24,216 nt of DNA, taken from positions 1 through 24,216 of IMG/VR virus record IMGVR_UViG_3300031152_000006, one strand, 5' to 3'. Source of the DNA: a virus. Taxonomy: Duplodnaviria > Caudoviricetes. A program made the translations under genes and the position numbers. This document shows, piece after piece, positions 1 through 24,216 of the stretch. The notes under the pieces are model-generated. The model did not search any database. It had not been told where the DNA came from and saw only the letters and a list, made by a program, of their open reading frames with translations. Position 1 is the first letter of the stretch, and every line of letters starts with the position of its first letter.

Positions 1-210
1 GCCGGCTACAACCGCGCCGGCTACAACCGCGCCGGCTATGACTGCGACGGCTATGACCGCGACGGCTATGACCGCGCCGGCTATGACCGCGCCGGCTACA
101 ACCGCGCCGGCTACAACCGCGCCGGCTACAACCGCGCCGGCTATGACTGCGACGGCTATGACCGCGCCGGCTATGACTGCGACGGCTATGACCGCGCCGG
201 CTATGACTGC
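1..210 (+). repeat. 15-bp tandem repeat, 14 units visible, consensus G(C/A)CGGCTA(CA/TG)AC(C/T)GC
   Basis: Exact 15-nt periodicity from 1 to 210 with no spacers; it probably continues upstream of the window. Confidence 0.97.
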
Positions 211-234
211 GACTGGGTGCACAAAGACGAGTAA
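1..234 (+). CDS. 3' end of a GYD/GYN pentapeptide-repeat protein (5'-truncated)
   Basis: Frame 1 is open from base 1: AGYNR-AGYNR-AGYDC-DGYDR-DGYDR-...-AGYDC-DWVHKDE, TAA at 232-234. The TAC/TAT variation between units is synonymous (Tyr) only in this frame, which favours it over the track's frame-2 MTATA ORF. Confidence 0.75.
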   Translation, partial: AGYNRAGYNRAGYDCDGYDRDGYDRAGYDRAGYNRAGYNRAGYNRAGYDCDGYDRAGYDCDGYDRAGYDCDWVHKDE

Positions 235-334
235 GAACGCTGTCACGCGAGCGGGCAGACGAGTCGGCTGGATACCGGCAGGTCGTAAGACCCAGAGTGA
301 GTTTCTTGAACCGTAACTTCAGGAGAATTCCGAC

Positions 335-10309: not shown

Positions 10310-10882
10310 ATGGAAACAGAAGTACGCAAGATCCACGTGATGTGCGACTTGGAGACGTTGGGCAAAGCTCCGGGCTGTAAGATCGTCAGCATAGGGGCCG
10401 TGGAGTTTTCCAGCGCAGGCCTGGGCCACGAGTTCTACATGGAGGTTACCCGCGACTTCCAAGGAACGTTGAACGAGGATCCCTCCACGCTTGAGTGGTG
10501 GGCTGCCCAGCCCTCTGAAGTTCGCGATCGTTTGTTCGAACACGATGCGCGGCGGCCGTTCTTGTCCAGCGCGTTGTTTGACTTCAACGAATGGCTAGTC
10601 AGTTTGTCAACTCAATCCCAGGGGGGCCCAGCGGAGATAGCCTTGTGGGGCAATGGCGCCACTTTCGACAACAGCATATTGAGGTATGCCTACACGGCAG
10701 TGGGCGGCCCCAAGGAACCTGCGTGGCCGTGGTTCAATGATTTTTGCTACCGCACCCTGAAGAACCTCCGTCTTGACGTACAGTTGGAGCGGACATCCCC
10801 CAAGCACCACGCGCTGTGCGACGCCAAGTACCAAGCGTTGCACGCCATAGAACTGATGAAGGCGATCGGGGTATGGGTGTAG
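10310..10882 (+). CDS. DEDDh 3'-5' exonuclease (Rv2179c/DUF5051-like)
   Basis: HVMCDLETLG, STLEWW, LWGNGATFD, CYRTLK, HHALCDA; AAGGAG RBS. Confidence 0.9.
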   Translation: METEVRKIHVMCDLETLGKAPGCKIVSIGAVEFSSAGLGHEFYMEVTRDFQGTLNEDPSTLEWWAAQPSEVRDRLFEHDARRPFLSSALFDFNEWLVSLSTQSQGGPAEIALWGNGATFDNSILRYAYTAVGGPKEPAWPWFNDFCYRTLKNLRLDVQLERTSPKHHALCDAKYQALHAIELMKAIGVWV

Positions 10883-11238
10883 TAGGTCGCTGGGTAGTCG
10901 GAGCAGGGACGGTAGTGGCCGAAGCCTCCTTGCACGACGTGGGCGCGGACGAGTTGTCGGCGTTCGGCAGGGCAGGCGCGAAGTTGGTCGAGCTGACGGA
11001 CGTACACGCCCATCCGTTCTGCCGCGGTAAAGGATGGTCTAGATTGGCCGTAGAAGCCGCTATGGAGTATGCCGACAAGAGGGATTGGGACGTGTATTTG
11101 CGGGTCTGCGTCTACGGCACCGTTGGAAAGAGGGTGCCTCGTCTTACGACAACCCAACTAGCAGCTTTTTACACCTCGTTGGGTTTCAAGCCTGTCGGAC
11201 CGTCGTTGGAGCTACAAATGGTCAGACGGCAGCCATGA
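10873..11238 (+). CDS. GNAT-family N-acetyltransferase
   Basis: Acetyl-CoA motif A VHAHPFCRGKGWS and C-terminal LAAFYTSLGF; start at ATG 10873 overlaps the upstream stop. Confidence 0.8.
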   Translation: MGVVGRWVVGAGTVVAEASLHDVGADELSAFGRAGAKLVELTDVHAHPFCRGKGWSRLAVEAAMEYADKRDWDVYLRVCVYGTVGKRVPRLTTTQLAAFYTSLGFKPVGPSLELQMVRRQP

Positions 11239-13237: not shown

Positions 13238-14038
13238 ATGGACGAGCCTGTCGTATGCCGCGAAGTCGGCACCAGCTACACCTGCATTCGTACGTCTGTT
13301 AGTGCCACCCATACAACGTACGTCACCATGGCCGATCTCAGAGTGGATCGTCTGAGCAATAAGGAATTCGCCCAACATTGGAAACCTTACGAAGTCTACC
13401 CCGTAGGGCGTGCGGCTCAGGTATACTTGGGCGCAGGTCAATACCGTGAAATTGACCCCCAGGTCAAAAAGCTCCTTGAGCAGATCCTGAGCAACCCGGC
13501 AACACCAGTAGAGCTTGATCCCGTCGTTTTTCCATCTTCAACTTCTCACCAGAAGGAAACTGTCATGTCTGAAGCGCAAACCGCCGCTGCGTCCGAAACC
13601 AAGACCTCCAAGGTCAAGAACGCCCCCGCGGCGAAGAAGGCAGCGAAGTCCGCCCCGGGCAAGCAAGCTGTCGCTGCAAAGAAGCCCGCAAAGAAAGCTG
13701 CCCCGGCCCCCGCGGCGAAGAAGGCAGCGAAGTCCGCCCCGGGCAAGCAAGCTGTCGCTGCGGTGGCGCAGACTCTGACCAAGGGCTCTGCCAAGCAGAC
13801 CGAAGCCGCCAAGAAGCCTCTGGGGCGGCCGGTGAGCAACGAAAAGCTCAAGGTCCTGGACCCGGAAGCCCCTCGCCGCGGCGCCACCGCCGACTTCGTG
13901 ACCGCAGCCGTTAAGCTCAAGACCTTCACGCGTCAAGAGCTGGCCGACGCCATGATCAAGGCCGGCTACGAAGAAAAGGCCGCCCGGATCAAGGTCGCGG
14001 ACATGGTGTACTTCGAAGTCATCGGCCCAGCCAAGTAA
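13238..14038 (+). CDS. Protein with histone H1-like Ala/Lys/Pro-rich region and C-terminal helical domain; strong in-frame internal start at 13565
   Basis: PAAKKAAKSAPGKQAVAA repeats; AGAAGGA precedes in-frame ATG 13565, whereas ATG 13238 has no clear RBS. Confidence 0.75.
   Translation: MDEPVVCREVGTSYTCIRTSVSATHTTYVTMADLRVDRLSNKEFAQHWKPYEVYPVGRAAQVYLGAGQYREIDPQVKKLLEQILSNPATPVELDPVVFPSSTSHQKETVMSEAQTAAASETKTSKVKNAPAAKKAAKSAPGKQAVAAKKPAKKAAPAPAAKKAAKSAPGKQAVAAVAQTLTKGSAKQTEAAKKPLGRPVSNEKLKVLDPEAPRRGATADFVTAAVKLKTFTRQELADAMIKAGYEEKAARIKVADMVYFEVIGPAK
13622..13761 (+). repeat. 56-bp exact direct repeat (13622-13677 and 13706-13761; 84-bp period)
   Basis: GCCCCCGCGGCGAAGAAGGCAGCGAAGTCCGCCCCGGGCAAGCAAGCTGTCGCTGC occurs twice in frame. 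Confidence 0.95.
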
Positions 14039-14041
14039 GCC

Positions 14042-14902
14042 GTGACTCTGTCCATCGTCGAATTCGGCGATGCATTGCTGCGTACGGGGGACCTGGACCC
14101 CGCGTACGCAGCAATCGCCGCTTGTGGGTTGGACGAGCCCACCCTTCACCGCCTGTGCCTTGCGTACTGGTGCTTCTACCACCTAGGAGTCGCGGCCCGT
14201 CTGGCCGAGTATAAGACCCCCGCTGTGTTTTGGTCCTGGATGGCCGAAGCCGCTGCGAACAAGGACCTGTCTTGGCCCCGCGGATCGGAGCGGCGGCACT
14301 TCCGGGCGGAAGCCGCGAAGTCTTCCGTGCGGGACTTGATGAGTCGGTACAAAACGGCAACTGACGCGGTTTATGGCATGATCGATTGCCCCATACCTAT
14401 CGGCCAAAAGTCGGTTCAGTTCGCCAGCGTGACAGCCAAAGTTGAGTCTCACACTGGGTTCGGCCCGTGGATGGGGTTCAAAATCGCGGACATGGCGGAG
14501 CGCGTGCTTGGCGGTCACGTGGACTTCTCCAACTGTCAGTTGAAGATGTTCAAGGATCCGCGGCAAGGGGCCTCTCTGGCGTACTTCCTGGACCACGTAG
14601 AGCCCAAACAACTCAAGCTGCTGGGTGATCCCAGGCCGTGGGAGTTCCCCGCGACGGACGCCCAAATCACCGCCACTGTTGACAAGTACGTCGCGTTGTG
14701 GCGCAAGAAGCGCGCAAAGGCCCCGCCCGCGAAAGATCGGCTGGTCAATATCCAGGAAATCGAGACCATTTTCTGCAAGTACAAGTCCCACTACAAGGGC
14801 CACTATCCGATAGGCAAGGACACGCACGAAATTGGCAAGGCGCTGGAAGGTTGGGGCGACCTCGCGCGGCAACTCAAGAAAGGACTGCCAAGTGGCGCGT
14901 AA
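14042..14902 (+). CDS. Amino acid:DNA transferase (aGPT-Pplase2/ADDT family)
   Basis: Family motifs FG..LL.TGDLDP.Y, LAYWCFYH.G, WPRGSERRHFR, GFGPW..FKIADM.ER, IQEIETIFCKYKSH..GHY..GKD..EI. Confidence 0.87.
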   Translation: MTLSIVEFGDALLRTGDLDPAYAAIAACGLDEPTLHRLCLAYWCFYHLGVAARLAEYKTPAVFWSWMAEAAANKDLSWPRGSERRHFRAEAAKSSVRDLMSRYKTATDAVYGMIDCPIPIGQKSVQFASVTAKVESHTGFGPWMGFKIADMAERVLGGHVDFSNCQLKMFKDPRQGASLAYFLDHVEPKQLKLLGDPRPWEFPATDAQITATVDKYVALWRKKRAKAPPAKDRLVNIQEIETIFCKYKSHYKGHYPIGKDTHEIGKALEGWGDLARQLKKGLPSGA

Positions 14903-15737
14903 GCACAACATCGTCATCGTCGGCGCGGGCCTCTTCGGCTCGATAGCTGCGCGCTTGGCCAGGGACGCGGGCCACACTGTCACGGTCATCGACGCCAACT
15001 TGCCGTTCGCAGCCAGCAAGGCGTCCGGTTGCGTCCTGGCGCCGTCTTGGCTCAATAGCATGGAGCGCAGTCAGATCGACACGTCGTTGGCCATCCTGGA
15101 CGAATTGTACGGGCTCATTCCGTTGGAGCTGCACTCCAATCTCGGCAAGGTGTTCAAGGCGCAGCGCGTGAACCTGAGCGACGTACTTGTCAAGCCAGAC
15201 CTGGAATTGATAGTGGACGGTGTGACTGACGGCGTGGTGCCCACGCCAGCTGGCAAGTACCGCGGCAAGGTGCTCGTGGCTGCAGGGGTCAAGTCGTTTG
15301 AGTTGTTGTCGCTGAGTAGCTTCCCGGGAGACTTGCCGCGGATGAAAGCTCTTTGGGGCGCTTCATTGACGTTCAACACGCAGTTGAAGAAGTCTGCTGC
15401 GCGCCTTCACGTCTACGCTCCTTACAAGCAGGCCGTCGCGTTCAACAATGGCTCGAAGCATGTGTGGATGGGGGACGGTACTTCGTTGGTTGAGGCTACT
15501 TGGGCCAAGCAACAAGAAGGCCGGGTGCTTGACACTATGCGCAGGGCCAAATCTCTTTTCGGCTTGCCGGCAGTACCTCCGGTGGTGAACGTCGGCGCCC
15601 GTCCGTGCGTGGAGGGCTACAAGGCCGGGTTTTTCGGCCGCCTGGGTCCACACACGTGGGTATCCACCGGCGGCGCGAAGAACGGGACCGTTTTGGCTGC
15701 ATGGCAGGCTTACCAATTCTTGCAGGAGCTGAAATGA
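14892..15737 (+). CDS. FAD-dependent oxidoreductase (glycine oxidase/DAO-like); candidate flavin-dependent lyase acting on glycyl-thymine
   Basis: Rossmann IVIVGAGLFG...VTVID, ASKASG, GARP, TGGAKNG; AAAGGA before GTG 14892; overlaps the transferase gene. Confidence 0.85.
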   Translation: MARKHNIVIVGAGLFGSIAARLARDAGHTVTVIDANLPFAASKASGCVLAPSWLNSMERSQIDTSLAILDELYGLIPLELHSNLGKVFKAQRVNLSDVLVKPDLELIVDGVTDGVVPTPAGKYRGKVLVAAGVKSFELLSLSSFPGDLPRMKALWGASLTFNTQLKKSAARLHVYAPYKQAVAFNNGSKHVWMGDGTSLVEATWAKQQEGRVLDTMRRAKSLFGLPAVPPVVNVGARPCVEGYKAGFFGRLGPHTWVSTGGAKNGTVLAAWQAYQFLQELK

Positions 15738-15847
15738 CGTTTGACGAGTTCTGCGGGCAGTTCACACTGACTGCCGAAGAGCGCGCTGCTTTGGTGTGGC
15801 ACTTGGCTGGCCTTCGTTTCCGCAAGACGCTGGAGGCCCTGTTGTGA
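15734..15847 (+). CDS. 37-aa hypothetical protein (MTFDEFCGQFTLTAEERAALVWHLAGLRFRKTLEALL)
   Basis: AGGAG RBS; ATGA and GTGA overlaps at the two ends. Confidence 0.7.
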   Translation: MTFDEFCGQFTLTAEERAALVWHLAGLRFRKTLEALL

Positions 15848-16422
15848 CAGTAGTCAACCTACGCGGTACGCACGGTGCCGGCAAGAGCACGGTGATTCAA
15901 CGCATCTTGAGGGAGTTCCCCCGTAAAGAGCTGATAGGCGAAGACGGCAAACTTTGGGGCTACTTGGTCACTTTGCCTTCGCGCGAACCGCTCGCCATCG
16001 TCGGCCCGTACCGCACCGCCTGCGGGGGTTGCGACGCCCTTCAGCCCTATAGCCGCATATGGCCGTTGGTGGACTACGCCGCCAAGCAAGCCTGGCACGT
16101 GCTCTTCGAGGGCGCGTTGGTCAGTTGCTCCTACGGTTCAATCGGCACGTCGTCTGAGGGCTACGGCGAGCGGTTCATTTTTGCCACCCTCGATACGCCT
16201 CTTGAGACTTGCATACAAAGGGTGAACCAACGTCGCGCTGCGAAAGGCAAAGGGCCCCTCGAAGATACCAAAAACATCGAGGGCAAGTTCAAGAGCGTGC
16301 TCAGTTCTCACAAGAAAGCCGAGGAACTAGGCCGGCGCGTGTTCACGGTTCGGCACTCCAAGCCTACCCTGGACGTTCTGTCTTTGTTTGGAATCAAACT
16401 GGCGAAGGAGCCAAGTGATTGA
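15844..16422 (+). CDS. P-loop nucleotide kinase of the type found in thymidine-hypermodification loci
   Basis: VNLRGTHGAGKST (Walker A), GPY..ACGGCD, VLFEG, LDTPLETCIQRV..RR; GTGA overlap. Confidence 0.85.
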   Translation: MTVVNLRGTHGAGKSTVIQRILREFPRKELIGEDGKLWGYLVTLPSREPLAIVGPYRTACGGCDALQPYSRIWPLVDYAAKQAWHVLFEGALVSCSYGSIGTSSEGYGERFIFATLDTPLETCIQRVNQRRAAKGKGPLEDTKNIEGKFKSVLSSHKKAEELGRRVFTVRHSKPTLDVLSLFGIKLAKEPSD

Positions 16423-16621
16423 ACCTTTCAAGATCATTGACACTGACAACTTCGGCGATGACTACCCGGATGAAAAGTTGATCGCCGACAACATACAGTC
16501 GTGGGCCCACGCCGACGCCATGTGCCAAGCCCTGAACGCTAAGTTCAGCGGTAAGCGGGCCCGTCGTTGCTACGAAATCAAGCCCGCTAGCTACGTCTTG
16601 CTGCCTGGATTTGAGCCATGA
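16415..16621 (+). CDS. Small phage hypothetical protein (68 aa)
   Basis: AAGGAG RBS before GTG 16415; KIIDTDNF.DDYPDE...ALN...Y.L..GFEP; ATGA overlap downstream. Confidence 0.7.
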   Translation: MIEPFKIIDTDNFGDDYPDEKLIADNIQSWAHADAMCQALNAKFSGKRARRCYEIKPASYVLLPGFEP

Positions 16622-17514
16622 GCGCGGCTTACGAACAAGGTCTGTATCGTTTTCTCGCCTACATGGGCAAACGGCACAGTATTTACTTGATGCGGCAGGA
16701 AGGCGCCGTCGCGCCTTGGACTTCAGACCCAATTCTGAAAGAATTCAGATTCTGCAACGTGTATCGCGAGCTGGACACCGTGACGATCTGGATTCGCGAC
16801 CACATTCGCGAGCCGTTCGCGAATCACCAGCACCTTTGGTTCATGCTTTGTATAGCGCGTCGCATCAACCACCCACCCACGTTGGCGGAACTTATCGCAG
16901 ACAAGAAGGCGTGGCCCGGTTCCGGGGCGTGGGATTGGGCCCGGACGGCCAAGATCCTAGACGACAGGACGGCGCGAGGCGAGCAGGTCTACACCGGCGC
17001 GTACATGATCACTGCTGAGACAGGCCCTGAGCATATCGGCAAGACCAAGTCAGTGACTACGGCCCGTAGCAATTTGTTGCCTCTTTGGCGCAAGGCGCAA
17101 GAGATAGAACCGCAGCTGCACGGCACCTTGCAGGAAGCCTACGAAGCCATCCTGGGGCAGGGATTTGCTTGGGGCCCTTTCATGACGTACGAAGTCGTGA
17201 GCGACCTGCGCCACACCCGCTACCTCAAGAACGCCAAGGACATCAGTACGTGGGCCAACGCAGGTCCCGGCGCGTTGCGCGGTCTGAACCGCTTGCACGG
17301 CCGCCCCGTCAAGAGCGGCTTGACCGAATCCATGGCGTTGAGCGAAATGCGACAGTTGCTGAATGACGTAGTCAAGCAATGGCCGAGGGCTTCGAAGAAA
17401 TACCCGCGCTTGGAAATGCGCGAGATTGAACACACACTCTGCGAATTCGACAAGTATGAAAGAGTGCGCCTCGGGGAGGGGCGCCCGCGTTCCAAGTACC
17501 ACCCCGCCGTCTGA
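16618..17514 (+). CDS. aGPT-Pplase1 / helical 5-hmdU DNA kinase-family protein
   Basis: RHSIY..R..G...PWTSDPIL..FRFCNVYRELD..T.W, VYTGAYMI, GPFM.YEV.SDL, NAGPGA.RGLNRL, IEHTLCEFDKY.R. Confidence 0.88.
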   Translation: MSAAYEQGLYRFLAYMGKRHSIYLMRQEGAVAPWTSDPILKEFRFCNVYRELDTVTIWIRDHIREPFANHQHLWFMLCIARRINHPPTLAELIADKKAWPGSGAWDWARTAKILDDRTARGEQVYTGAYMITAETGPEHIGKTKSVTTARSNLLPLWRKAQEIEPQLHGTLQEAYEAILGQGFAWGPFMTYEVVSDLRHTRYLKNAKDISTWANAGPGALRGLNRLHGRPVKSGLTESMALSEMRQLLNDVVKQWPRASKKYPRLEMREIEHTLCEFDKYERVRLGEGRPRSKYHPAV

Positions 17515-17528
17515 GGATCAACCCGACT

Positions 17529-18611
17529 ATGTACACTATCACCGCATCGGCTCCCGACTTCGCCTTGGAGGCGGGTCTTTGGTATTTGAAGACCTCTGGC
17601 GTCGTCTGCGAAAGCCGCAACGGACGAGTCCTTCGCGCCCCCGGTCCTGTCTGCACCGTATGGGCGGACCCGCGGCAGCGCGTGTCCTTCTCTCCGCTGC
17701 GCGACGCCAATCCGTTCTTTCACCTCTTCGAAGCCATCTGGATGCTGGCTGGTCGCAACGACGCTGCGTCTTTGCTCCCGTACAATTCTCACATGGCGAC
17801 GTTCGCTGAAGGCGGCCAGTTCTGGGGTGCGTACGGCAATCGCTGGCGCAAGTTCTTCGGCTTCGACCAGCTCACGCACATAATCGAACGGCTGAAGGTC
17901 AATCCGTCCGATCGTCGCTTGGTGCTGTCCATGTGGGCGCCGAACGGGGACCTGATTCCGGCTGGCGGTCTGCGAGGCGGCGCCAGTAGTAAGGACGTAC
18001 CGTGCAATACCGCCGTCTACTTCGATGCGTCTCTGGGCAAGCTGGACATGACAGTGACGAATCGCTCCAACGATATCGTCTGGGGCGCGTACGGCGCCAA
18101 CGTCGTCCATATGAGCTTCCTCCATGAGTTCGTTGCGGCCGCCGCTGGCGTCCCTCTCGGGACTTACTACCAATTCAGTAACAACTACCACGCTTACATT
18201 GACCGCCCCGACGTGCAGAAGTTGATCGACACACAGCGGGATCGCTCTTCATGGTCCGTCAACTTCCAACCAGGCAACCGTCTGCGTACGAGTAGTCACA
18301 CGTTGATGGGACAGGGCGAAGACTATGTCAGCTTTTTGGTTGACGCTGAGACCTTCCTGGAAGCTGATGAAGACTGGGCGCCGGCCACGGCGTTCTTTCG
18401 GTCCGTTGCGGTCCCGCTGAAACAGGCCCACGCAGCGTGGCGGGAAGGCGATTACGGCGGCGCTCTCTCCAGGTGTAGGGATTGCCAGTCAGAAGATTGG
18501 CGCTACGCAGCCGTCGAGTGGTTGTGCCGCCGTCTTCGCGCTCGGGGCGCGAAGGGCGACGAGGCTGCGACCCAGGCCGTGTCGCAAATCCCCAACGTCT
18601 TTGGAGGCTGA
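17529..18611 (+). CDS. Thymidylate synthase homolog, probable dUMP hydroxymethylase
   Basis: ESRNG, ANPFFHLFEAIWMLAGRND, GAYG.R, SDRRLVL.MW, catalytic DVPCN, NRSNDIVWGAYGAN (Asn at the uracil-specificity position, not the Asp of dCMP enzymes), NNYHAY. The hydroxymethylase call rests on the gene neighbourhood. Confidence 0.87.
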   Translation: MYTITASAPDFALEAGLWYLKTSGVVCESRNGRVLRAPGPVCTVWADPRQRVSFSPLRDANPFFHLFEAIWMLAGRNDAASLLPYNSHMATFAEGGQFWGAYGNRWRKFFGFDQLTHIIERLKVNPSDRRLVLSMWAPNGDLIPAGGLRGGASSKDVPCNTAVYFDASLGKLDMTVTNRSNDIVWGAYGANVVHMSFLHEFVAAAAGVPLGTYYQFSNNYHAYIDRPDVQKLIDTQRDRSSWSVNFQPGNRLRTSSHTLMGQGEDYVSFLVDAETFLEADEDWAPATAFFRSVAVPLKQAHAAWREGDYGGALSRCRDCQSEDWRYAAVEWLCRRLRARGAKGDEAATQAVSQIPNVFGG

Positions 18612-18612
18612 C

Positions 18613-19197
18613 GTGGTAGATGTAGATTCAAACAATCGTAAGGCGCGGTCGCTGAGTCCTGCGGACGAGCGTTTCCTGGACGCGGTGGTGCGGTCAGGCC
18701 GCGTCAAGCGGTGGCACAACCGCAGTACGCTGCACACGCAAACCGTGGGCGAGCACACTTACAACGTCCTGTGGATCTTGATTCACATTACAGACAACAA
18801 AGTGTCTCCTGACTTGTTGCGCGCAGCGCTGGCGCACGACATGCCGGAGTACGCTACAGGCGACGTTCCGAAGCATGTCAAAGACCTGCCGGGCGTTCGC
18901 CAAGCCCTGGAGGCACAAGAGCGGGTTGTATTCGAGCAACTAGGGCTGTCGTCTTTTCAAGAATCTAATCTGACCGGAACTGACCAGATTCTGCTTAAAT
19001 GGGCGGATGGCCTGGACGGCGCTCTGTTTTGCGCGTGGGAGCTGAAAATGGGCAACAAGTTGCTCCGCAATCCGTTTGAAAATTACCTGGGCTATCTGAG
19101 CGTTCTCAAAATGAAGGGCGGCTTGGACCTGCCCAAGGCGTTCGCTATCTTGGCGCATCTTGACGAGGTTTGGCATGACGAATTCAACCCCTTCTGA
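18613..19197 (+). CDS. HD-domain 5'-deoxynucleotidase (YfbR-like)
   Basis: VKRWH, QTVGEH, LAHDMPEYATGDVP, KWAD.LD; GGAGG 5 nt before GTG 18613. Confidence 0.85.
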   Translation: MVDVDSNNRKARSLSPADERFLDAVVRSGRVKRWHNRSTLHTQTVGEHTYNVLWILIHITDNKVSPDLLRAALAHDMPEYATGDVPKHVKDLPGVRQALEAQERVVFEQLGLSSFQESNLTGTDQILLKWADGLDGALFCAWELKMGNKLLRNPFENYLGYLSVLKMKGGLDLPKAFAILAHLDEVWHDEFNPF

Positions 19198-19597
19198 CCC
19201 CTCCAACTCCTACCAGGTAGGTGGGACCCACTACCAGTCGGCACTGCAGCACTGGGACTTTGTGGCTGCGTACGGCCTGGACTACTTTCAGGGGGTAGCC
19301 ACGAAGTACATCACACGTTGGCGCAACAAGAACGGCTTGGAAGATCTCAAGAAAGCCCAGCACTACTTGCGCAAGCGTATCGAACTGACAACGGTCTTGC
19401 CCATGTACATTCGGACGCACTTCGAACCGCAACCGAGCACGTCAATAGCCGAGTTCTGCAAGGCCAACTGTCTGGGACTGAACGAGACGGACTTGGTGGC
19501 CCTCATTACCGAAGGCCAGTTGCATAAGGCTTTGGAGCAGCTCACAGCGTTCATAGCCTACGTAGAGCGCCAGGCTGCCAAAGGAGGCGCGCAATGA
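19175..19597 (+). CDS. DUF3310 (SaV / T7 gp1.7-like) protein, possible nucleotide kinase
   Basis: QVGGTHY, G.A.KYI.RWR.KNGLEDLKKA.HYL; GAGG before ATG 19175. Confidence 0.85.
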   Translation: MTNSTPSDPSNSYQVGGTHYQSALQHWDFVAAYGLDYFQGVATKYITRWRNKNGLEDLKKAQHYLRKRIELTTVLPMYIRTHFEPQPSTSIAEFCKANCLGLNETDLVALITEGQLHKALEQLTAFIAYVERQAAKGGAQ

Positions 19598-20223
19598 CTT
19601 ACGACGTTTCAGTACTCAACGTGGCGGTAGTTGGAGGCGCTGGGGCGCTGGGGCGTGAGCTGATTTCTTGGATCCGCGGGGAGAGGGTGAATGTGATTGT
19701 GGTTGACGATTCTGTCGCGGGCGCAGGGGTGGAGGAGTTCGCCCGCCGCGATTTGAGCCGTATGAATTTACACCGCGCGCTCGTGGCTGTAGCGGACCCT
19801 GTTGTGCGAAAGCGCCTTCGTACTCTGCTGAATGATTGCGCGCCAGGCGATATTTGGGCTTCGTCTGTGGGTCCGCATGCTGTCGTACACAGCCAGCTTG
19901 GGCAAGGCGCCATCGTTGCGCCGTTCGCCTTGGTCTCGGTCAACGTCAAGTCCGGGCGCCACCTGATCGTCAACACCCACAGCGCCATCGGGCACGACGT
20001 CATCCTGGGCGACTACGTGACGATAGCCGGCCACGTCACCATCTGCGGCCGCGCCTCTATCGGCGATGGGGTTCAGATCGGCGCGGGGGCCGTCATTCTG
20101 CCGGGGGTTCAGATCGGCGCGGGGGCCGTCGTGGGCGCGGGGGCCGTGGTCACTTCGGACGTTCCGGCAGACGTAACGGTGTTCGGCAATCCCGCGGTCA
20201 GAGTGGGAGTACGTCGTGTCTAA
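19594..20223 (+). CDS. PglD/NeuD-type sugar acetyltransferase (left-handed beta-helix)
   Basis: N-terminal VVGGAGALGREL, VAVADP.VRK, SAIGHD (catalytic His position), hexapeptide repeats IGDGVQIGAGAVILPGVQIGAGAVVGAGAVV, VFGNPA; AAGGAGG RBS, ATGA overlap. Confidence 0.9.
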   Translation: MTYDVSVLNVAVVGGAGALGRELISWIRGERVNVIVVDDSVAGAGVEEFARRDLSRMNLHRALVAVADPVVRKRLRTLLNDCAPGDIWASSVGPHAVVHSQLGQGAIVAPFALVSVNVKSGRHLIVNTHSAIGHDVILGDYVTIAGHVTICGRASIGDGVQIGAGAVILPGVQIGAGAVVGAGAVVTSDVPADVTVFGNPAVRVGVRRV

Positions 20224-21127
20224 GCCGGCAGCGGGTTGGCTTCCCGTTTGCCACGTGTCCGAGGTGGCAGAAGTGGGCCAGTACGTGGTTCTGCCATGGG
20301 GGCCGGATGGGGGCGAGATAGCCGTTAGCCGGATGGGGCCGGTTCGATTCGACGGCTTGGTGGCGTGGGACAACCGTTGCCCCCACCGCGGGCGCAAGAT
20401 TCTACCTGCGGCTTGCGGTCGTTCTGACCACGTGTGCGCGTATCACGGTCGGACGGCCCACGCTGGAAACGTTCGACACCACCCCCTGGACGTCCATTGC
20501 GATTTTGTATGGGTCAGCGTAGCAGGCGGGGCTACGGGGTGGCAGCCGGGTTGCGGCATTCTGCCCTGGTCTTCCGGCTCACCCAGGACGTGGAGCCTGC
20601 ACAGCGAATTGAGGTTAGTCATGGACTGCGATTGGACTGTGGCTGTAGAGAACGCCTTGGACGCAGAGCACATAAACTCGGTACACGCCGATAGTCTGGC
20701 CCAACTCGGCCTTGCACCTGAAGCGCTGAACCGTTTGCCGGGAGGGTCTTCGTGCGAAGTGTTTACGTCCGCCAAGTCGGCTGAACTAGACCGACTTGGG
20801 CGCGCTTTGGACTTCGGCAGGTCGGTGTCTGGCGACTACCTTCATTTGCACTTGGCGCCTTTCTCCTGCTTCAGTTCCACGCGCGGTTACGCCCTGAACT
20901 TCCAACAATACTTCCCTGCCAAGGATGGAAAGACCCTGTTCATTCACAAACTGTACGGCGATCTGACCGCCAAGCCCGCGGCGCGGCGCGCCTATCTTGA
21001 CAAGGTGGCGGCCATGAACAAGATGGTCTTCGAAGAAGATGCAGACATTTGTCAAGGGGTGCCTGCAGGGTACGGCAAACTGGGCCCGTCGGATCTGCGC
21101 ATACAACATTTTAGGAGTTCGCTGTGA
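20216..21127 (+). CDS. Rieske non-heme iron oxygenase alpha subunit (compact)
   Basis: Rieske ligands CPH-x16-CAYH; mononuclear Fe motif ENALDAEHINSVH; C-terminal VFEED. Confidence 0.87.
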   Translation: MSKPAAGWLPVCHVSEVAEVGQYVVLPWGPDGGEIAVSRMGPVRFDGLVAWDNRCPHRGRKILPAACGRSDHVCAYHGRTAHAGNVRHHPLDVHCDFVWVSVAGGATGWQPGCGILPWSSGSPRTWSLHSELRLVMDCDWTVAVENALDAEHINSVHADSLAQLGLAPEALNRLPGGSSCEVFTSAKSAELDRLGRALDFGRSVSGDYLHLHLAPFSCFSSTRGYALNFQQYFPAKDGKTLFIHKLYGDLTAKPAARRAYLDKVAAMNKMVFEEDADICQGVPAGYGKLGPSDLRIQHFRSSL

Positions 21128-21444
21128 AAGAAGATCCAATCATTTTGGGCTGCTCTGCCAGCACATTCAACAACGGAGCTGTATTGCATCGTAAGGGCGA
21201 AGTGTTTTTGGTCAGTAAGTCCACCGCCAGTAAGTTGCTTGGATCGTCCCCCGCGTACTGCAACCTGACGCCCTCAGAGGTGTGCAAGGCTTTGCCCGAC
21301 GGCCCCTTCTTGCCGACGGCTGTCACTACTGTCAGCCAAGGTCCTTGCCATGAATGCGCCGATCCTGACACTTTGTATCTAGGTCAGCGCTTGACGGACT
21401 GTAGTCGTTGCGGAGGCACGAAGGTTGTGCTGAAGTTGCTATGA
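21124..21444 (+). CDS. Small protein with C-terminal CxxC-x14-CxxC metal-binding motif
   Basis: CHEC...CSRCGG; AGGAG RBS; GTGA and ATGA overlaps. Confidence 0.65.
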   Translation: MKEDPIILGCSASTFNNGAVLHRKGEVFLVSKSTASKLLGSSPAYCNLTPSEVCKALPDGPFLPTAVTTVSQGPCHECADPDTLYLGQRLTDCSRCGGTKVVLKLL

Positions 21445-22490
21445 TCAAAGTGCTCGTGCCTTACATGCCTACGGCTGACCAACTGGTGCCGTATCTACGC
21501 GAAATGGACGAGTCTAAGGTGTACACCAATAACGGGCCGTTGGCTCGCCGTTTGGAAGCTCAGCTCAGTACGCAGTTGCAAATACCTTGTGTCTCCGTAG
21601 CCAACGCCACGTTAGGTTTGGAACTTGCGTTGAAGGCCTTGCCTGGTAAAGACCGCTGGGTTGTTCCTACGTCCGCTCTGACGTTCCGAGCCACCCAGTG
21701 CGCCATCGTAAACGCGGGTCTGGCGCCTGCGTATGTTGACGTGGCCCCGGACAGTTGGAGCCTGCACCCAAATGCCGTGGCGGGCAGCATTGCAGCCGCT
21801 GAGTACGCAGTCAAAGCGGTAGTGCCCGTGGCCGCTTACGGCAGGCCGCTTGTAGACCCGTCTTGGAACCGCTTCGCAGAAAAGACCGGCCTTCCCGTAG
21901 TGATTGACGCAGCCGGCTGCTTGCCAGCCTACCTGGACGGCGGTCTGTCTGATAGTTATTGCGGCCGCCTGGCCGTCGTGTTCAGCTTGCACGCCACGAA
22001 GGGGGTGGGGGCGGGCGAAGGCGGAATTGTCTGCTCGCACGACAAAGACTTGATTTCCAAGGTACGCGGGACAATCAACTTTCAAGGGTACGGAGCTACC
22101 AACGGAAAGTTGTCCGAGTACCACGCGGCCGTAGCTCTGGCGTCGTTGACGGTGGGCTTTCGTAAGGAGCGGGCCCTCAAGATGAACCAGGTAGTGCGGT
22201 GGTACCAACTGAATTGGCCGTCTTCTCTGTCAGACCGCTTCTTTGGATCGTCACTGCTGGTAGCCAAGTTGCCCGCTCGTGTAAGGTTTCAAGACGTGAC
22301 AGAAGCGGCGTTGAATCGCGGCGTTGAGCTTCGCCAGTGGTACAGCCCATTTTACGACGAGGCAGCTTTGGAGCAGCTGCCCGTCGCCCGCGAGCTTCGC
22401 AATCGGCTCATAGGCTTGCCGTACCACGCTCATCTCAGCGAAGACGACGTGGCTCATGTTTGTGACACCATGAAGGAGGTGCTAAAATGA
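21441..22490 (+). CDS. DegT/DnrJ/EryC1/StrS PLP-dependent sugar aminotransferase (VioA-like)
   Basis: YTNNGP, ANATLGL, TF.AT, VIDAA (PLP Asp), FSLHATK..GAGEGG (PLP Lys), NGKLSEYHAA, LP...LS..DV; ATGA overlap gives start 21441. Confidence 0.92.
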   Translation: MIKVLVPYMPTADQLVPYLREMDESKVYTNNGPLARRLEAQLSTQLQIPCVSVANATLGLELALKALPGKDRWVVPTSALTFRATQCAIVNAGLAPAYVDVAPDSWSLHPNAVAGSIAAAEYAVKAVVPVAAYGRPLVDPSWNRFAEKTGLPVVIDAAGCLPAYLDGGLSDSYCGRLAVVFSLHATKGVGAGEGGIVCSHDKDLISKVRGTINFQGYGATNGKLSEYHAAVALASLTVGFRKERALKMNQVVRWYQLNWPSSLSDRFFGSSLLVAKLPARVRFQDVTEAALNRGVELRQWYSPFYDEAALEQLPVARELRNRLIGLPYHAHLSEDDVAHVCDTMKEVLK

Positions 22491-23458
22491 GGATTTTGGT
22501 TACAGGGGGCGCCGGCTTCATCGGCTCTCACTTCGTCTATCTAGCCCACGAGGCCGGACACGAGGTGTTCGTACTGGACGCCTTGACGTATGCTGGCAGC
22601 CGAGCGAACGTAGACATGGGCGCTTGCCAGCGGTTCTACCGGGGGCGGGTAGAGCGCGCGGGGGACGTGGCTAAGTGCCTCGCGGACTCCAAGCCTGACG
22701 CGGTGGTGCACTTGGCGGCCGAGACGCACGTGACGCGATCCATTCGCTCTCCCCGCGCCTTCATGCAAACCAACGCGCTGGGGACGTATGTACTGTTGGA
22801 TCAGTGCACGCGCTACCGGGACGAGTCGGCCCCCCGTCTGCGCGTGATCAACGTGTCCACAGACGAGGTGTACGGCTCTCTGACCCCGTCAGAGCTGCCT
22901 TGGACGTCTCAAGCGCCGCACCGCCCCAACAACCCGTACGCAGCAAGCAAGGCCGCTGCGGACCACTTGGCCGGATCGTACGCCCACACTTATGAATTGG
23001 ACGTGATTACTACGCACAGCTCTAACAACTACGGTCCGAGGCAACACCCCGAGAAGCTCATACCGGCGCTTATCGACAGGGCGCGCCGCGGCTTATCGAT
23101 GCAAATTCACGGGGACGGCTCTCACGTCAGAGACTGGCTGCACGTAGATGACCATTGTTCTGGTCTTTTGTCGGTGTTGACGGCCCCAAGCTTGCGCCGC
23201 GGCTCCACGGTCAATTTCAGCGGCCAGTGCGAGCGTACCAACCTTCAAGTGGCCGCGTTGGTAGCCGAGAGCTTGTCGCTTAGCGCGCGCGTAGAGCTTG
23301 TGGCGGACAGGCCGGGTAACGACAAGCGTTACGCTATGACCAACGACGCGTCAGAGGTTTTGGGGTGGAAGCCGCGCAGCACGTTAGAAGACGGCATCAA
23401 AGAAACTGTGAATTGGTACATGGACAACGAAGGATACGAAGCCCATTATGGCAAATGA
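22487..23458 (+). CDS. rmlB: dTDP-glucose 4,6-dehydratase (RmlB/RffG-like)
   Basis: GGAGFIGS, DALTYAG, HLAAETHV.RSI, STDEVYG, YAASK, SNNYGPRQHPEKLIP, RDWLHV.DH, DRPG.D.RY; AAGGAGG RBS. Confidence 0.94.
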   Translation: MRILVTGGAGFIGSHFVYLAHEAGHEVFVLDALTYAGSRANVDMGACQRFYRGRVERAGDVAKCLADSKPDAVVHLAAETHVTRSIRSPRAFMQTNALGTYVLLDQCTRYRDESAPRLRVINVSTDEVYGSLTPSELPWTSQAPHRPNNPYAASKAAADHLAGSYAHTYELDVITTHSSNNYGPRQHPEKLIPALIDRARRGLSMQIHGDGSHVRDWLHVDDHCSGLLSVLTAPSLRRGSTVNFSGQCERTNLQVAALVAESLSLSARVELVADRPGNDKRYAMTNDASEVLGWKPRSTLEDGIKETVNWYMDNEGYEAHYGK

Positions 23459-24216
23459 AAATCTCCCAGCTGGCGTGACAGTCATTCCCAACGTATCGTT
23501 GGAAGAGTTTGAAGCCAAGGTCTACTCGCGCGACTACGAAAAAGCTACCATCCTTCTTCTGCAGAACCTCCAGCGTTTGAAAGCGGGCGCGTTCTTCGTG
23601 GGGTACCAGCCCAACCACCCCAAGCTGGCGCTCATGCTCTATTCGAGGTTCTGCGCAGCCATCGTTGCGTTGATGCTGGACAAGACCAGCCCTGCACGCT
23701 TGTCCCAGCAAGGCTTTGAGTGCTTGGCGGCTGAGCATGCAATCATGGACGCGTTGTTCAGGGCCAGCGTGTTCGAGACCAGCGATCACATGCTGCCTCA
23801 GATTGCCGAAAACCCCACCGAGACTGACAGAAGCAAGCTGAAGCTTACGGACCGCCACCTTATGGCGAAGTTCTTTACTGTCTATTCGCTACGGTCCAGC
23901 TTCAAGATGAAGTTCGAAGAGGCGTTCAAGCGCAATCCGCAGAACTTCGTCGCGTTCTGGGCCGGGGCCCTGTCGCACCTTCTCACTATCAACAAGGACG
24001 CTCACGACCGCAAAGAAGAGTTGCTGGGCATGCACGGTATATTCGCCGACGTCAAGCTCAGCGACGCGACACTACCTGTACTGTCTGACGCCTACATGTA
24101 CGCCAGCTACGGAACCCGCCGCGACAAGCACGCCATGAAAGCTACCGTGCACAAGATGATGGCCCGGATGTTTCAGGATCACAAGACCCCTCTGCCCAGC
24201 AGAGAGACCCTCGCCC
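23448..24216 (+). CDS. HMW1C/ApNGT-like (GT41) N-glycosyltransferase, N-terminal part (3'-truncated; not in ORF track)
   Basis: Open from ATG 23448 to the window end (256 codons). The translation matches the recalled HMW1C N-terminal helical region: SLEEFE...RDYEKA..LLL..L..L, YSRFCAAI..L, LS.QGF..L...H..MD.LF.AS.F...DH, K....YS.RS, A.DRKEELL, LSDAYMYASY....DKHAMK. The catalytic GT-B domain would lie beyond the window. Confidence 0.8.
   Translation, partial: MANENLPAGVTVIPNVSLEEFEAKVYSRDYEKATILLLQNLQRLKAGAFFVGYQPNHPKLALMLYSRFCAAIVALMLDKTSPARLSQQGFECLAAEHAIMDALFRASVFETSDHMLPQIAENPTETDRSKLKLTDRHLMAKFFTVYSLRSSFKMKFEEAFKRNPQNFVAFWAGALSHLLTINKDAHDRKEELLGMHGIFADVKLSDATLPVLSDAYMYASYGTRRDKHAMKATVHKMMARMFQDHKTPLPSRETLA

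Follow-up and report, generated by a model that had tools for sequence, protein, structure and literature searches.

The stretch analysed here (the window) is the whole of the linear, 24,216-nt IMG/VR virus record IMGVR_UViG_3300031152_000006, which comes from an uncultured tailed soil phage of the class Caudoviricetes. From position 14042 to its end, the window carries 15 open reading frames (ORFs) on the plus strand, and these form two neighbouring modules. The first (14042-19597) is a PaMx11-type module for thymine hypermodification through 5-hydroxymethyldeoxyuridine (5-hmdU; the hmdU module), and the second (19594-24216) is the front of a sugar cassette that ends with a glycosyltransferase (GT) gene. 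We propose, with a probability of roughly 0.6, that the cassette serves to place an N-acyl-viosamine-type sugar on the phage's own virion proteins. The gene content, gene order, co-occurrence and residue states given below were observed; the product, the acceptor and the linkage are predictions built on them.

Within this run, 12 of the 14 junctions overlap, and the neighbours at the other two are separated by 14 nt and 1 nt; these counts depend on the start codons chosen, the ORF caller being a simple codon model. A preliminary description of the sequence had reported tight packing with no gap above 14 nt and with ATGA or GTGA overlaps at 15734, 15844, 16618, 19594, 21124, 21441 and 22487. 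All of these overlaps are present, and each gene family that it named was recovered by Pfam at its place on the plus strand and in the order given, while two small ORFs (15734-15847 and 16415-16621) were absent from its list. The packing suggests a single operon for the whole run; a scan of the run for promoters and terminators gave results at chance level. A Logan contig of sequencing run X1, possibly the source sample, spans positions 13732-21492 with zero differences to the window. Since this contig crosses position 19594, the junction between the hmdU module and the sugar cassette is no chimera of the window's assembly, and it is real. Genes for a ligase, PolA, exonucleases and an SNF2 helicase (Pfam) lie 5' of the run.

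The hmdU module is an ordinary variant of the PaMx11 pathway (gp46-gp53) that leads to 5-acetylaminomethyl-dU (5-AcNmdU). In the main text of Lee et al. (PMC8989533), gp49 is assigned as a 5-hmdU kinase, gp46 as a glycine:DNA transferase, gp47 as a flavin enzyme yielding 5-aminomethyl-dU (5-NmdU), and gp48 as the acetyltransferase of 5-NmdU; that main text never mentions a glycosyltransferase, an aminotransferase, a Rieske enzyme or a sugar. Seven homologs, 28-43% identical to their PaMx11 counterparts, stand in the window in identical order (E-values follow the family names here and below). The module opens with an amino acid:DNA transferase homologous to gp46 and predicted to use glycine (14042-14902; ADDT PF18724, 7.6e-19; 40% identity). 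It is followed by a FAD-dependent enzyme homologous to gp47 (14892-15737; DAO PF01266, 8e-13; 29-30% identity, E 2e-37), which is predicted to convert glycyl-T to 5-aminomethyl-dU. Next come a homolog of the 5-hmdU DNA kinase gp49 (15844-16422; HMUDK PF18748, 3.2e-9; 38%), a 68-aa ORF of unassigned function (16415-16621; phrog_19873, 2e-16) and an aGPT-Pplase1/HMUDK_hel protein homologous to gp50 (16618-17514; PF18723, 3.8e-48; 37%). A thymidylate synthase (TS) homolog corresponding to gp51 (17529-18611; TS PF00303, 1.5e-18; 43%) is the predicted dUMP hydroxymethylase; it has Asn, as gp51 does, at the column whose Asn or Asp we take to select between dUMP and dCMP. An HD-domain nucleotidase homologous to gp52 (18613-19197; YfbR/HD PF12917, 3.3e-11; 28%) and a DUF3310 protein homologous to gp53 (19175-19597; PF11753, 6.9e-8; 36%) complete the module. 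A dUMP hydroxymethylase, a 5-hmdU kinase and an aGPT-Pplase2/ADDT protein are thus clustered together with the gp47-type FAD lyase, and the preliminary assignment of this half to PaMx11-like 5-hmdU hypermodification stands on the seven syntenic homologs and their Pfam families.

The window differs from PaMx11 in having no gp48 acetyltransferase and in continuing with the sugar cassette where PaMx11 has a terminator and polymerase genes. At the position of gp48 lies a 37-aa ORF (15734-15847) that belongs to no family and is not an acetyltransferase, and four GNAT queries against the 24-kb window, which is an incomplete genome, gave no match better than E 0.1. Because no gp48 homolog is found in the window, the predicted modified base is 5-NmdU, unless it is capped by an enzyme encoded outside the fragment. 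A GNAT-like ORF at 10816-11238, flanked by an exonuclease gene on one side and the helicase gene on the other, was considered and rejected as gp48, with which it aligns over only 15 aa. It is probably not the NmdU acetyltransferase, as the hmdU locus L312 has a counterpart of it (41%) besides its own gp48-like gene.

Several side observations concern this region and its relatives. In L315 and L326, whose clusters combine ADDT and FAD genes with no gp48-like ORF, a gene of the histone deacetylase family (PF00850) lies directly 3' of the DUF3310 gene (L315:12004-12858, 1.6e-24; L326:10699-11583, 3.8e-26) and may encode a further thymidine-tailoring enzyme. Immediately before the ADDT gene of the window is a Lys/Ala-rich ORF with an uncertain start (13238-14038), which contains a direct repeat of 56 nt with identical copies at 13622 and 13706; homologs of this ORF occupy the corresponding position in G006, L312, L315 and L326. 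The left end of the window (1-255) consists of about 17 copies of a 15-nt tandem unit within an ORF at 38-316.

The sugar cassette begins with a hexapeptide sugar N-acyltransferase of the NeuD/PglB/VioB-like type (19594-20223; Hexapep, 5.2e-17; TIGR03570 at 141 bits, cut-off 160.8), which shares 38-40% identity with homologs in phages without hmdU genes (L003-L005). A Rieske non-heme iron oxygenase follows (20216-21127; Ring_hydroxyl_A PF00848, 4.8e-7; Rieske PF00355, 2.7e-5). Its ligands are intact, residues C55, H57, C74, H77, H152, H157 and D275 being invariant in seven homologs; the homolog P0002 is 67% identical, and the nearest Atlas cluster is 89% viral. The next gene encodes a 106-aa protein of no Pfam family with two C-terminal CxxC motifs (21124-21444), and homologs of it also lie 3' of the Rieske gene in genomes G001 (31%) and G002 (24%). 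A DegT-family sugar aminotransferase (21441-22490; PF01041, 8.2e-42; PDB 2po3, 1.6e-28) has as its best named match the DesI type, which makes 4-amino-4,6-dideoxyglucose (TIGR04427 at 115.7 bits, far under the cut-off of 650). An RmlB-like NDP-glucose 4,6-dehydratase stands before the GT gene (22487-23458; GDP_Man_Dehyd/Epimerase, 2.7e-66; TIGR01181 at 344 bits, cut-off 365). The dehydratase, C4-aminotransferase and N-acyltransferase families of a viosamine-type pathway are therefore all present, each scoring under its equivalog or subfamily cut-off, and the predicted donor is an NDP-4-acylamido-4,6-dideoxyhexose of the viosamine type. Among 12 phage genomes that carry the GT, the Rieske, FabH and FabG genes occur in the same five. 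From this co-distribution we infer that the Rieske enzyme likely acts on the N-acyl group and that FabH and FabG genes probably lie 3' of the window's GT, beyond the contig end.

The GT gene itself (23448-24216) is ended by the contig end after the N-terminal 256 aa of an HMW1C-like GT41 glycosyltransferase (HMW1C_N PF18071, 8e-9; 3q3e, 3.1e-6). At 52% identity, the fragment matches a 627-aa protein of locus L002, which has HMW1C_N and GT41 domains and aligns over residues 28-601 with the N-glycosyltransferases (NGTs) AaNGT (8p0o, 2e-66; also 8p0q) and ApNGT (3q3e, 2.4e-63). The architecture, AAD plus GT41 without tetratricopeptide repeats (TPRs), is complete in this relative; the window holds the AAD part, and its C-terminal part is missing. 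The C-terminal core columns H284, R288, G375, H376, K445, N523 and D527 are conserved in nearly all GT homologs. A search with the L002 protein returned 78 proteins, many on contigs of 60-68 kb, and an alignment of 41 of them led to 22 viral loci, 80 metagenome loci (the best 80 of 203) and 77 genome loci. No INPHARED phage matched the window's GT fragment, its Rieske enzyme or the full-length GT, and no cultured model was found.

Two further proteins were observed near the GT in related cassettes. A 160-aa protein of no Pfam family (L002:2521-3003) is encoded 3' of the GT in six of the 12 genomes; its one weak Atlas lead is to nucleotide pyrophosphohydrolases (0.83). A GT2 domain fused to a radical SAM domain, which may extend or methylate the glycan, is encoded 3' of the GT41 cassette in G006 (L219:1491-3518), G004 (L200:17500-19710) and G010 (L226:2079-4241).

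The hmdU and sugar modules do not travel together. Eight of the GT-carrying phage genomes are complete (G001-G005, G008, G011 and G012), and none of them has a HMUDK_hel match (PF18723; the control G006 was positive) or a tblastn match to the ADDT, FAD, kinase or aGPT homologs. Pfam scans covered G001 and G002 nearly in full and the other genomes in part. A TS-family homolog is present in two of the eight and in none of the other six. These two homologs (L199:12991-13767 in G004; L203:10516-11400 in G005) carry Asp in place of the window's Asn at the selecting column, and they are likely dCMP methylases or hydroxymethylases. C5-methylase genes were absent from all 13 records searched, with the positive controls detected, and a Tet_JBP search of the 13 records, run without a positive control, was likewise negative. 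In G001, G002 and G003 the acyltransferase, Rieske, DegT and GT genes stand in the same order as in the window, with no TS gene. G001 also carries a PAPS-reductase/QueC-like gene beside DpdA (L190:5883-7737) together with two N6/N4 methylases, a separate system of the deazaguanine type.

The wider sets of loci agree. Genes for hmdU accompany the GT in one of 22 viral loci (L014, in G006; nine of the loci had 10 kb upstream) and in one of the 80 metagenome loci (L053). From the side of the TS gene, we took the best 80 of 592 loci from 29 of 64 parts, a sample and not a census, in which L014 is not included. For 44 of these the downstream sequence extends over 7 kb or more; 43 of the 44 carry hypermodification genes, and in none was a GT, DegT, Rieske or acyltransferase gene found downstream of TS; an RmlB-like gene lies upstream in one. 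The full run from ADDT to DUF3310 occurs without a GT in the records L312, L315 and L326, and the complete hmdU relatives G040 (L315) and G041 have neither the GT nor the capsid protein described below. The three GTs that do adjoin hmdU genes (window, L014/G006 and L053) fall in different parts of the GT tree and belong to different cassettes; that of the window clusters with six Rieske-cassette GTs from non-hmdU loci (FastTree, support 96; the window fills 39% of columns). Their adjacency would be explained by a shared position, as the early/replication arm has each module at its far end: in L312, L315, L316 and L326 convergent genes follow the hmdU run directly or after one more gene, and convergent tail genes lie 3' of the sugar cassette in G001, G003, G005, G006, G007 and L002.

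The preliminary description had offered as one possibility a single pathway in which the GT caps 5-aminomethyl-dU or leftover 5-hmdU with a deoxy-amino sugar, giving a new hypermodified base. The seamless packing of the run, the adjacency in three phages and the amine left free in a window without a gp48-like acetyltransferase all fit such a pathway, and the two complete carriers with Asp-type TS homologs may modify cytosine. Against it, a GT beside a gene for a hydroxymethyl or amino base is not the rule in the eight complete carriers, of which none has hmdU hypermodification genes and only two have any TS homolog, and the nearest relatives of the window's GT sit in phages without hmdU genes. 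In G006 a gp48 homolog is kept (28%, E 4e-14) and L053 has a GNAT-like gene at the gp48 position, so that the amines there are probably capped, whereas L315 and L326 lack a gp48-like ORF in the interval from the FAD gene to the aGPT gene and yet their records hold no GT. None of the solved homologs acts on DNA. The gene neighbourhood named beforehand as contrary to this pathway is the one that was found, with the sugar/GT module mostly in non-hmdU phages and, in G008, inside structural genes, and we consider glycosylation of the base highly improbable. Protein charge was also tried as a proxy for DNA binding: the DNA enzymes of the window are basic, and full-length GTs range from neutral to acidic; PaMx11 gp46, gp47 and gp50 (pI 5.7-6.7) fail as a control, and the proxy was rejected.

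What most of the GT-carrying phages share is a structural protein. Replication genes vary over the 12 genomes (integrase and RecT in G003, PolA in G004 and G005, hmdU genes in G006), and nine of the 12 have a common protein of about 505 aa, whose homologs in Arthrobacter phages are annotated as major capsid proteins. These nine carriers and the later-found G035 fall in one 23-row capsid clade (SH-aLRT support 99 in a quick IQ-TREE tree of 82 capsids). The GT was searched for in 25 capsid records, comprising two positive controls, three in-clade fragments and 20 out-of-clade records; it was found in one of the three fragments and in none of the 20, three of which are at least 90% complete. The other three of the 12 carriers have different capsids. 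One of them, the podophage G008, encodes the GT between its major head block and an SU10-type head-tail adaptor, with the acyltransferase and DegT genes just 5' of the small terminase; another, G012, encodes the GT 5' of the terminase and in the same orientation. Among the contigs of run X1 is one of 8,853 nt and depth 9.94 whose capsid gene resembles that of G001 (179 differences in 1,126 letters); a second, of 9,111 nt and depth 9.82, matches further on. The window's contigs have depths of 8.3-10.6, and the match in depth is suggestive of the window phage belonging to the capsid clade. The other possibility raised in the preliminary description, protein glycosylation beside a separate hmdU module, thus gains support from the tie to the capsid clade, the placement in G008 and the occurrence of the GT without hmdU genes. 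As a side observation, the G006 capsid (L218:3505-5028) has a middle part rich in Ser, Thr, Asn and Gly (residues ~155-345 by alignment), a candidate exposed acceptor domain; an AlphaFold model of the capsid protein from seven sequences reached a predicted local distance difference test score of 37 and was not used.

The linkage may be N- or O-. According to PMC10507012, Arg177 and Asp215 of AaNGT read the Thr at position +2 of the acceptor, and both Ala mutants are inactive. By sequence alignment the window has Leu at the Arg177 position and Asp at the Asp215 position, and in the 18 GTs of its wider clade Arg177 is never present (0/18; Leu or Met) and Asp215 always is (18/18). The loss of Arg177 could also be read as a changed acceptor site for DNA, but it occurs in all 18 GTs, with hmdU genes or without. 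Because the sequon-reading Arg of true NGTs is absent, N-linkage is not established; of the earlier label 'N-glycosyltransferase', the HMW1C-like fold holds and the type of bond does not follow. Relative to HMW1C-like NGTs, the enzyme is phage-encoded and comes with its own amino-sugar pathway instead of using UDP-Glc/Gal, and its full-length relative L002 scores 268 bits in NF049992 (NCBIfam), where the cut-off is 1000. Glycosylation of virion Asn in the N-X-S/T sequons of capsid and tail proteins is a sub-case to which we give about a third of the weight of virion glycosylation, and taken by itself it is doubtful. It would fit the HMW1C fold over the full length, the invariant Asp215 and capsids that are richer in Asn inside the clade than outside (32 vs 24; 22 vs 51 unique sequences), with two sequons near-fixed in the clade (21/22 vs 1/51; 20/22 vs 9/51). 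Sequons are more numerous in the clade as well (8.1 vs 4.7), but so, to the same degree, are reversed motifs (8.4 vs 4.4), and the enrichment therefore probably reflects more Asn and no selection for sequons.

Several points weigh against glycosylation of the virion. Sequon enrichment of the capsid, as just described, was set aside as specific evidence, and no capsid or tail gene was recognised in the 24-kb window, whose X1 capsid contig is tied to it by depth with no physical link. The capsid clade is one lineage and represents about one event, which makes it weak as statistics. A parsimony label test on the quick tree was non-significant (149 of 500 shuffles were as low); in it, 14 of the 23 clade rows, mostly untested fragments, were unlabelled and counted as negative. 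Incomplete records make up 17 of the 20 out-of-clade set. The adjacency to hmdU genes recurs in three phages, and phages of the window's own lineage have the cassette on their early arm, opposite the structural genes. Phages with hmdU deplete dTTP, the source of dTDP-glucose, so that a dTDP-sugar route would be starved.

The early-arm position would also suit a cassette that acts, perhaps against superinfection, on a non-structural protein of the phage or on a protein of the host such as pilin, flagellin or another receptor. An integrase gene in carrier G003 makes lysogenic conversion possible, and bacterial relatives of the GT stand beside flagellin or another flagellar gene in 8 of the 77 genome loci. 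That count is also low for a parallel with flagellar glycosylation. The GT within the head-to-adaptor block of G008 and 5' of the terminase in G012 speaks for a virion target instead, and a tie to one capsid clade would not be expected if the host were modified; we regard a host or non-structural target as a possible but unlikely explanation.

A protein acceptor also has parallels in bacteria, and in Pseudomonas and Burkholderia viosamine-type islands glycosylate flagellin. At the bacterial locus L126 the order is flgL, an unknown gene, DegT, GT, methylase, acyltransferase, AMP ligase, Gfo, TPR and fliC, and phages G004 and G006 have the GT, acyltransferase, AMP ligase and Gfo genes. According to a table in PMC3826837, the flagellar cluster of Xanthomonas (XCV2007-2013) contains a Rieske enzyme, an acetyltransferase, two short-chain dehydrogenases/reductases, FabH, an acyl carrier protein (ACP) and an aminotransferase, the same enzyme set as in phage G002. 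The cassette described here differs from such flagellar islands in being phage-borne and in having a TPR-less transferase of the HMW1C type, and its acceptor is a prediction. Many other bacterial loci lie among general glycan genes with no obvious protein target, which would suit an acceptor that is neither protein nor DNA (a host lipid, lipopolysaccharide or a small molecule). The solved members of the family are, however, all protein glycosyltransferases, and frames and motifs are intact in more than 20 phage loci, contrary to what decaying cargo would show; an acceptor of this kind, or mere cargo, appears improbable.

For glycosylation of the virion, the following course can be proposed. 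The hmdU module would convert some of the hydroxymethyluracil of the phage to 5-aminomethyl-dU. Separately, RmlB would dehydrate host NDP-glucose, DegT would aminate C4 to give a viosamine-type sugar, and the hexapeptide enzyme would acylate this amine; the acyl group is probably a short chain supplied through ACP, FabH and FabG, whose genes are expected beyond the contig end, after which the Rieske enzyme may oxidise the acyl group. The GT41 enzyme would then move the sugar onto capsid or tail subunits in the cytoplasm, through Ser/Thr or through Asn under a rule other than the classic N-X-S/T. The two modules would meet where the early/replication arm ends, immediately ahead of the convergent genes for lysis and tail.

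Both activities belong to known kinds. Besides the PaMx11 hypermodification, phage-encoded glycosyltransferases of mycobacteriophages glycosylate the capsid and tail tube (Freeman et al. 2023, as cited in PMC12619734). In comparison with that system, the present one has a GT41/HMW1C enzyme and a phage-encoded acyl-amino-sugar pathway in unrelated phages. A search of titles and abstract openings, with subscription papers and supplements outside its reach, found no report of a phage HMW1C/GT41 cassette.

If the improbable case of DNA glycosylation were true, it would mark the first nucleobase acceptor for a GT41 enzyme, with a new hypermodified nucleoside as the product. If, as we favour, the virion is the target, an uncultured lineage of tailed phages would make an acylated amino sugar itself and coat its particles with it, by means of an HMW1C-fold enzyme that follows another acceptor rule than the known NGTs. 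Virion glycosylation would then extend beyond mycobacteriophages, and a soluble transferase for rare sugars would be at hand. Tight packing at the end of a phage's early arm does not imply one pathway, and the phage of the window would be shielded in two separate ways, by a modified base and by a coat of sugar.

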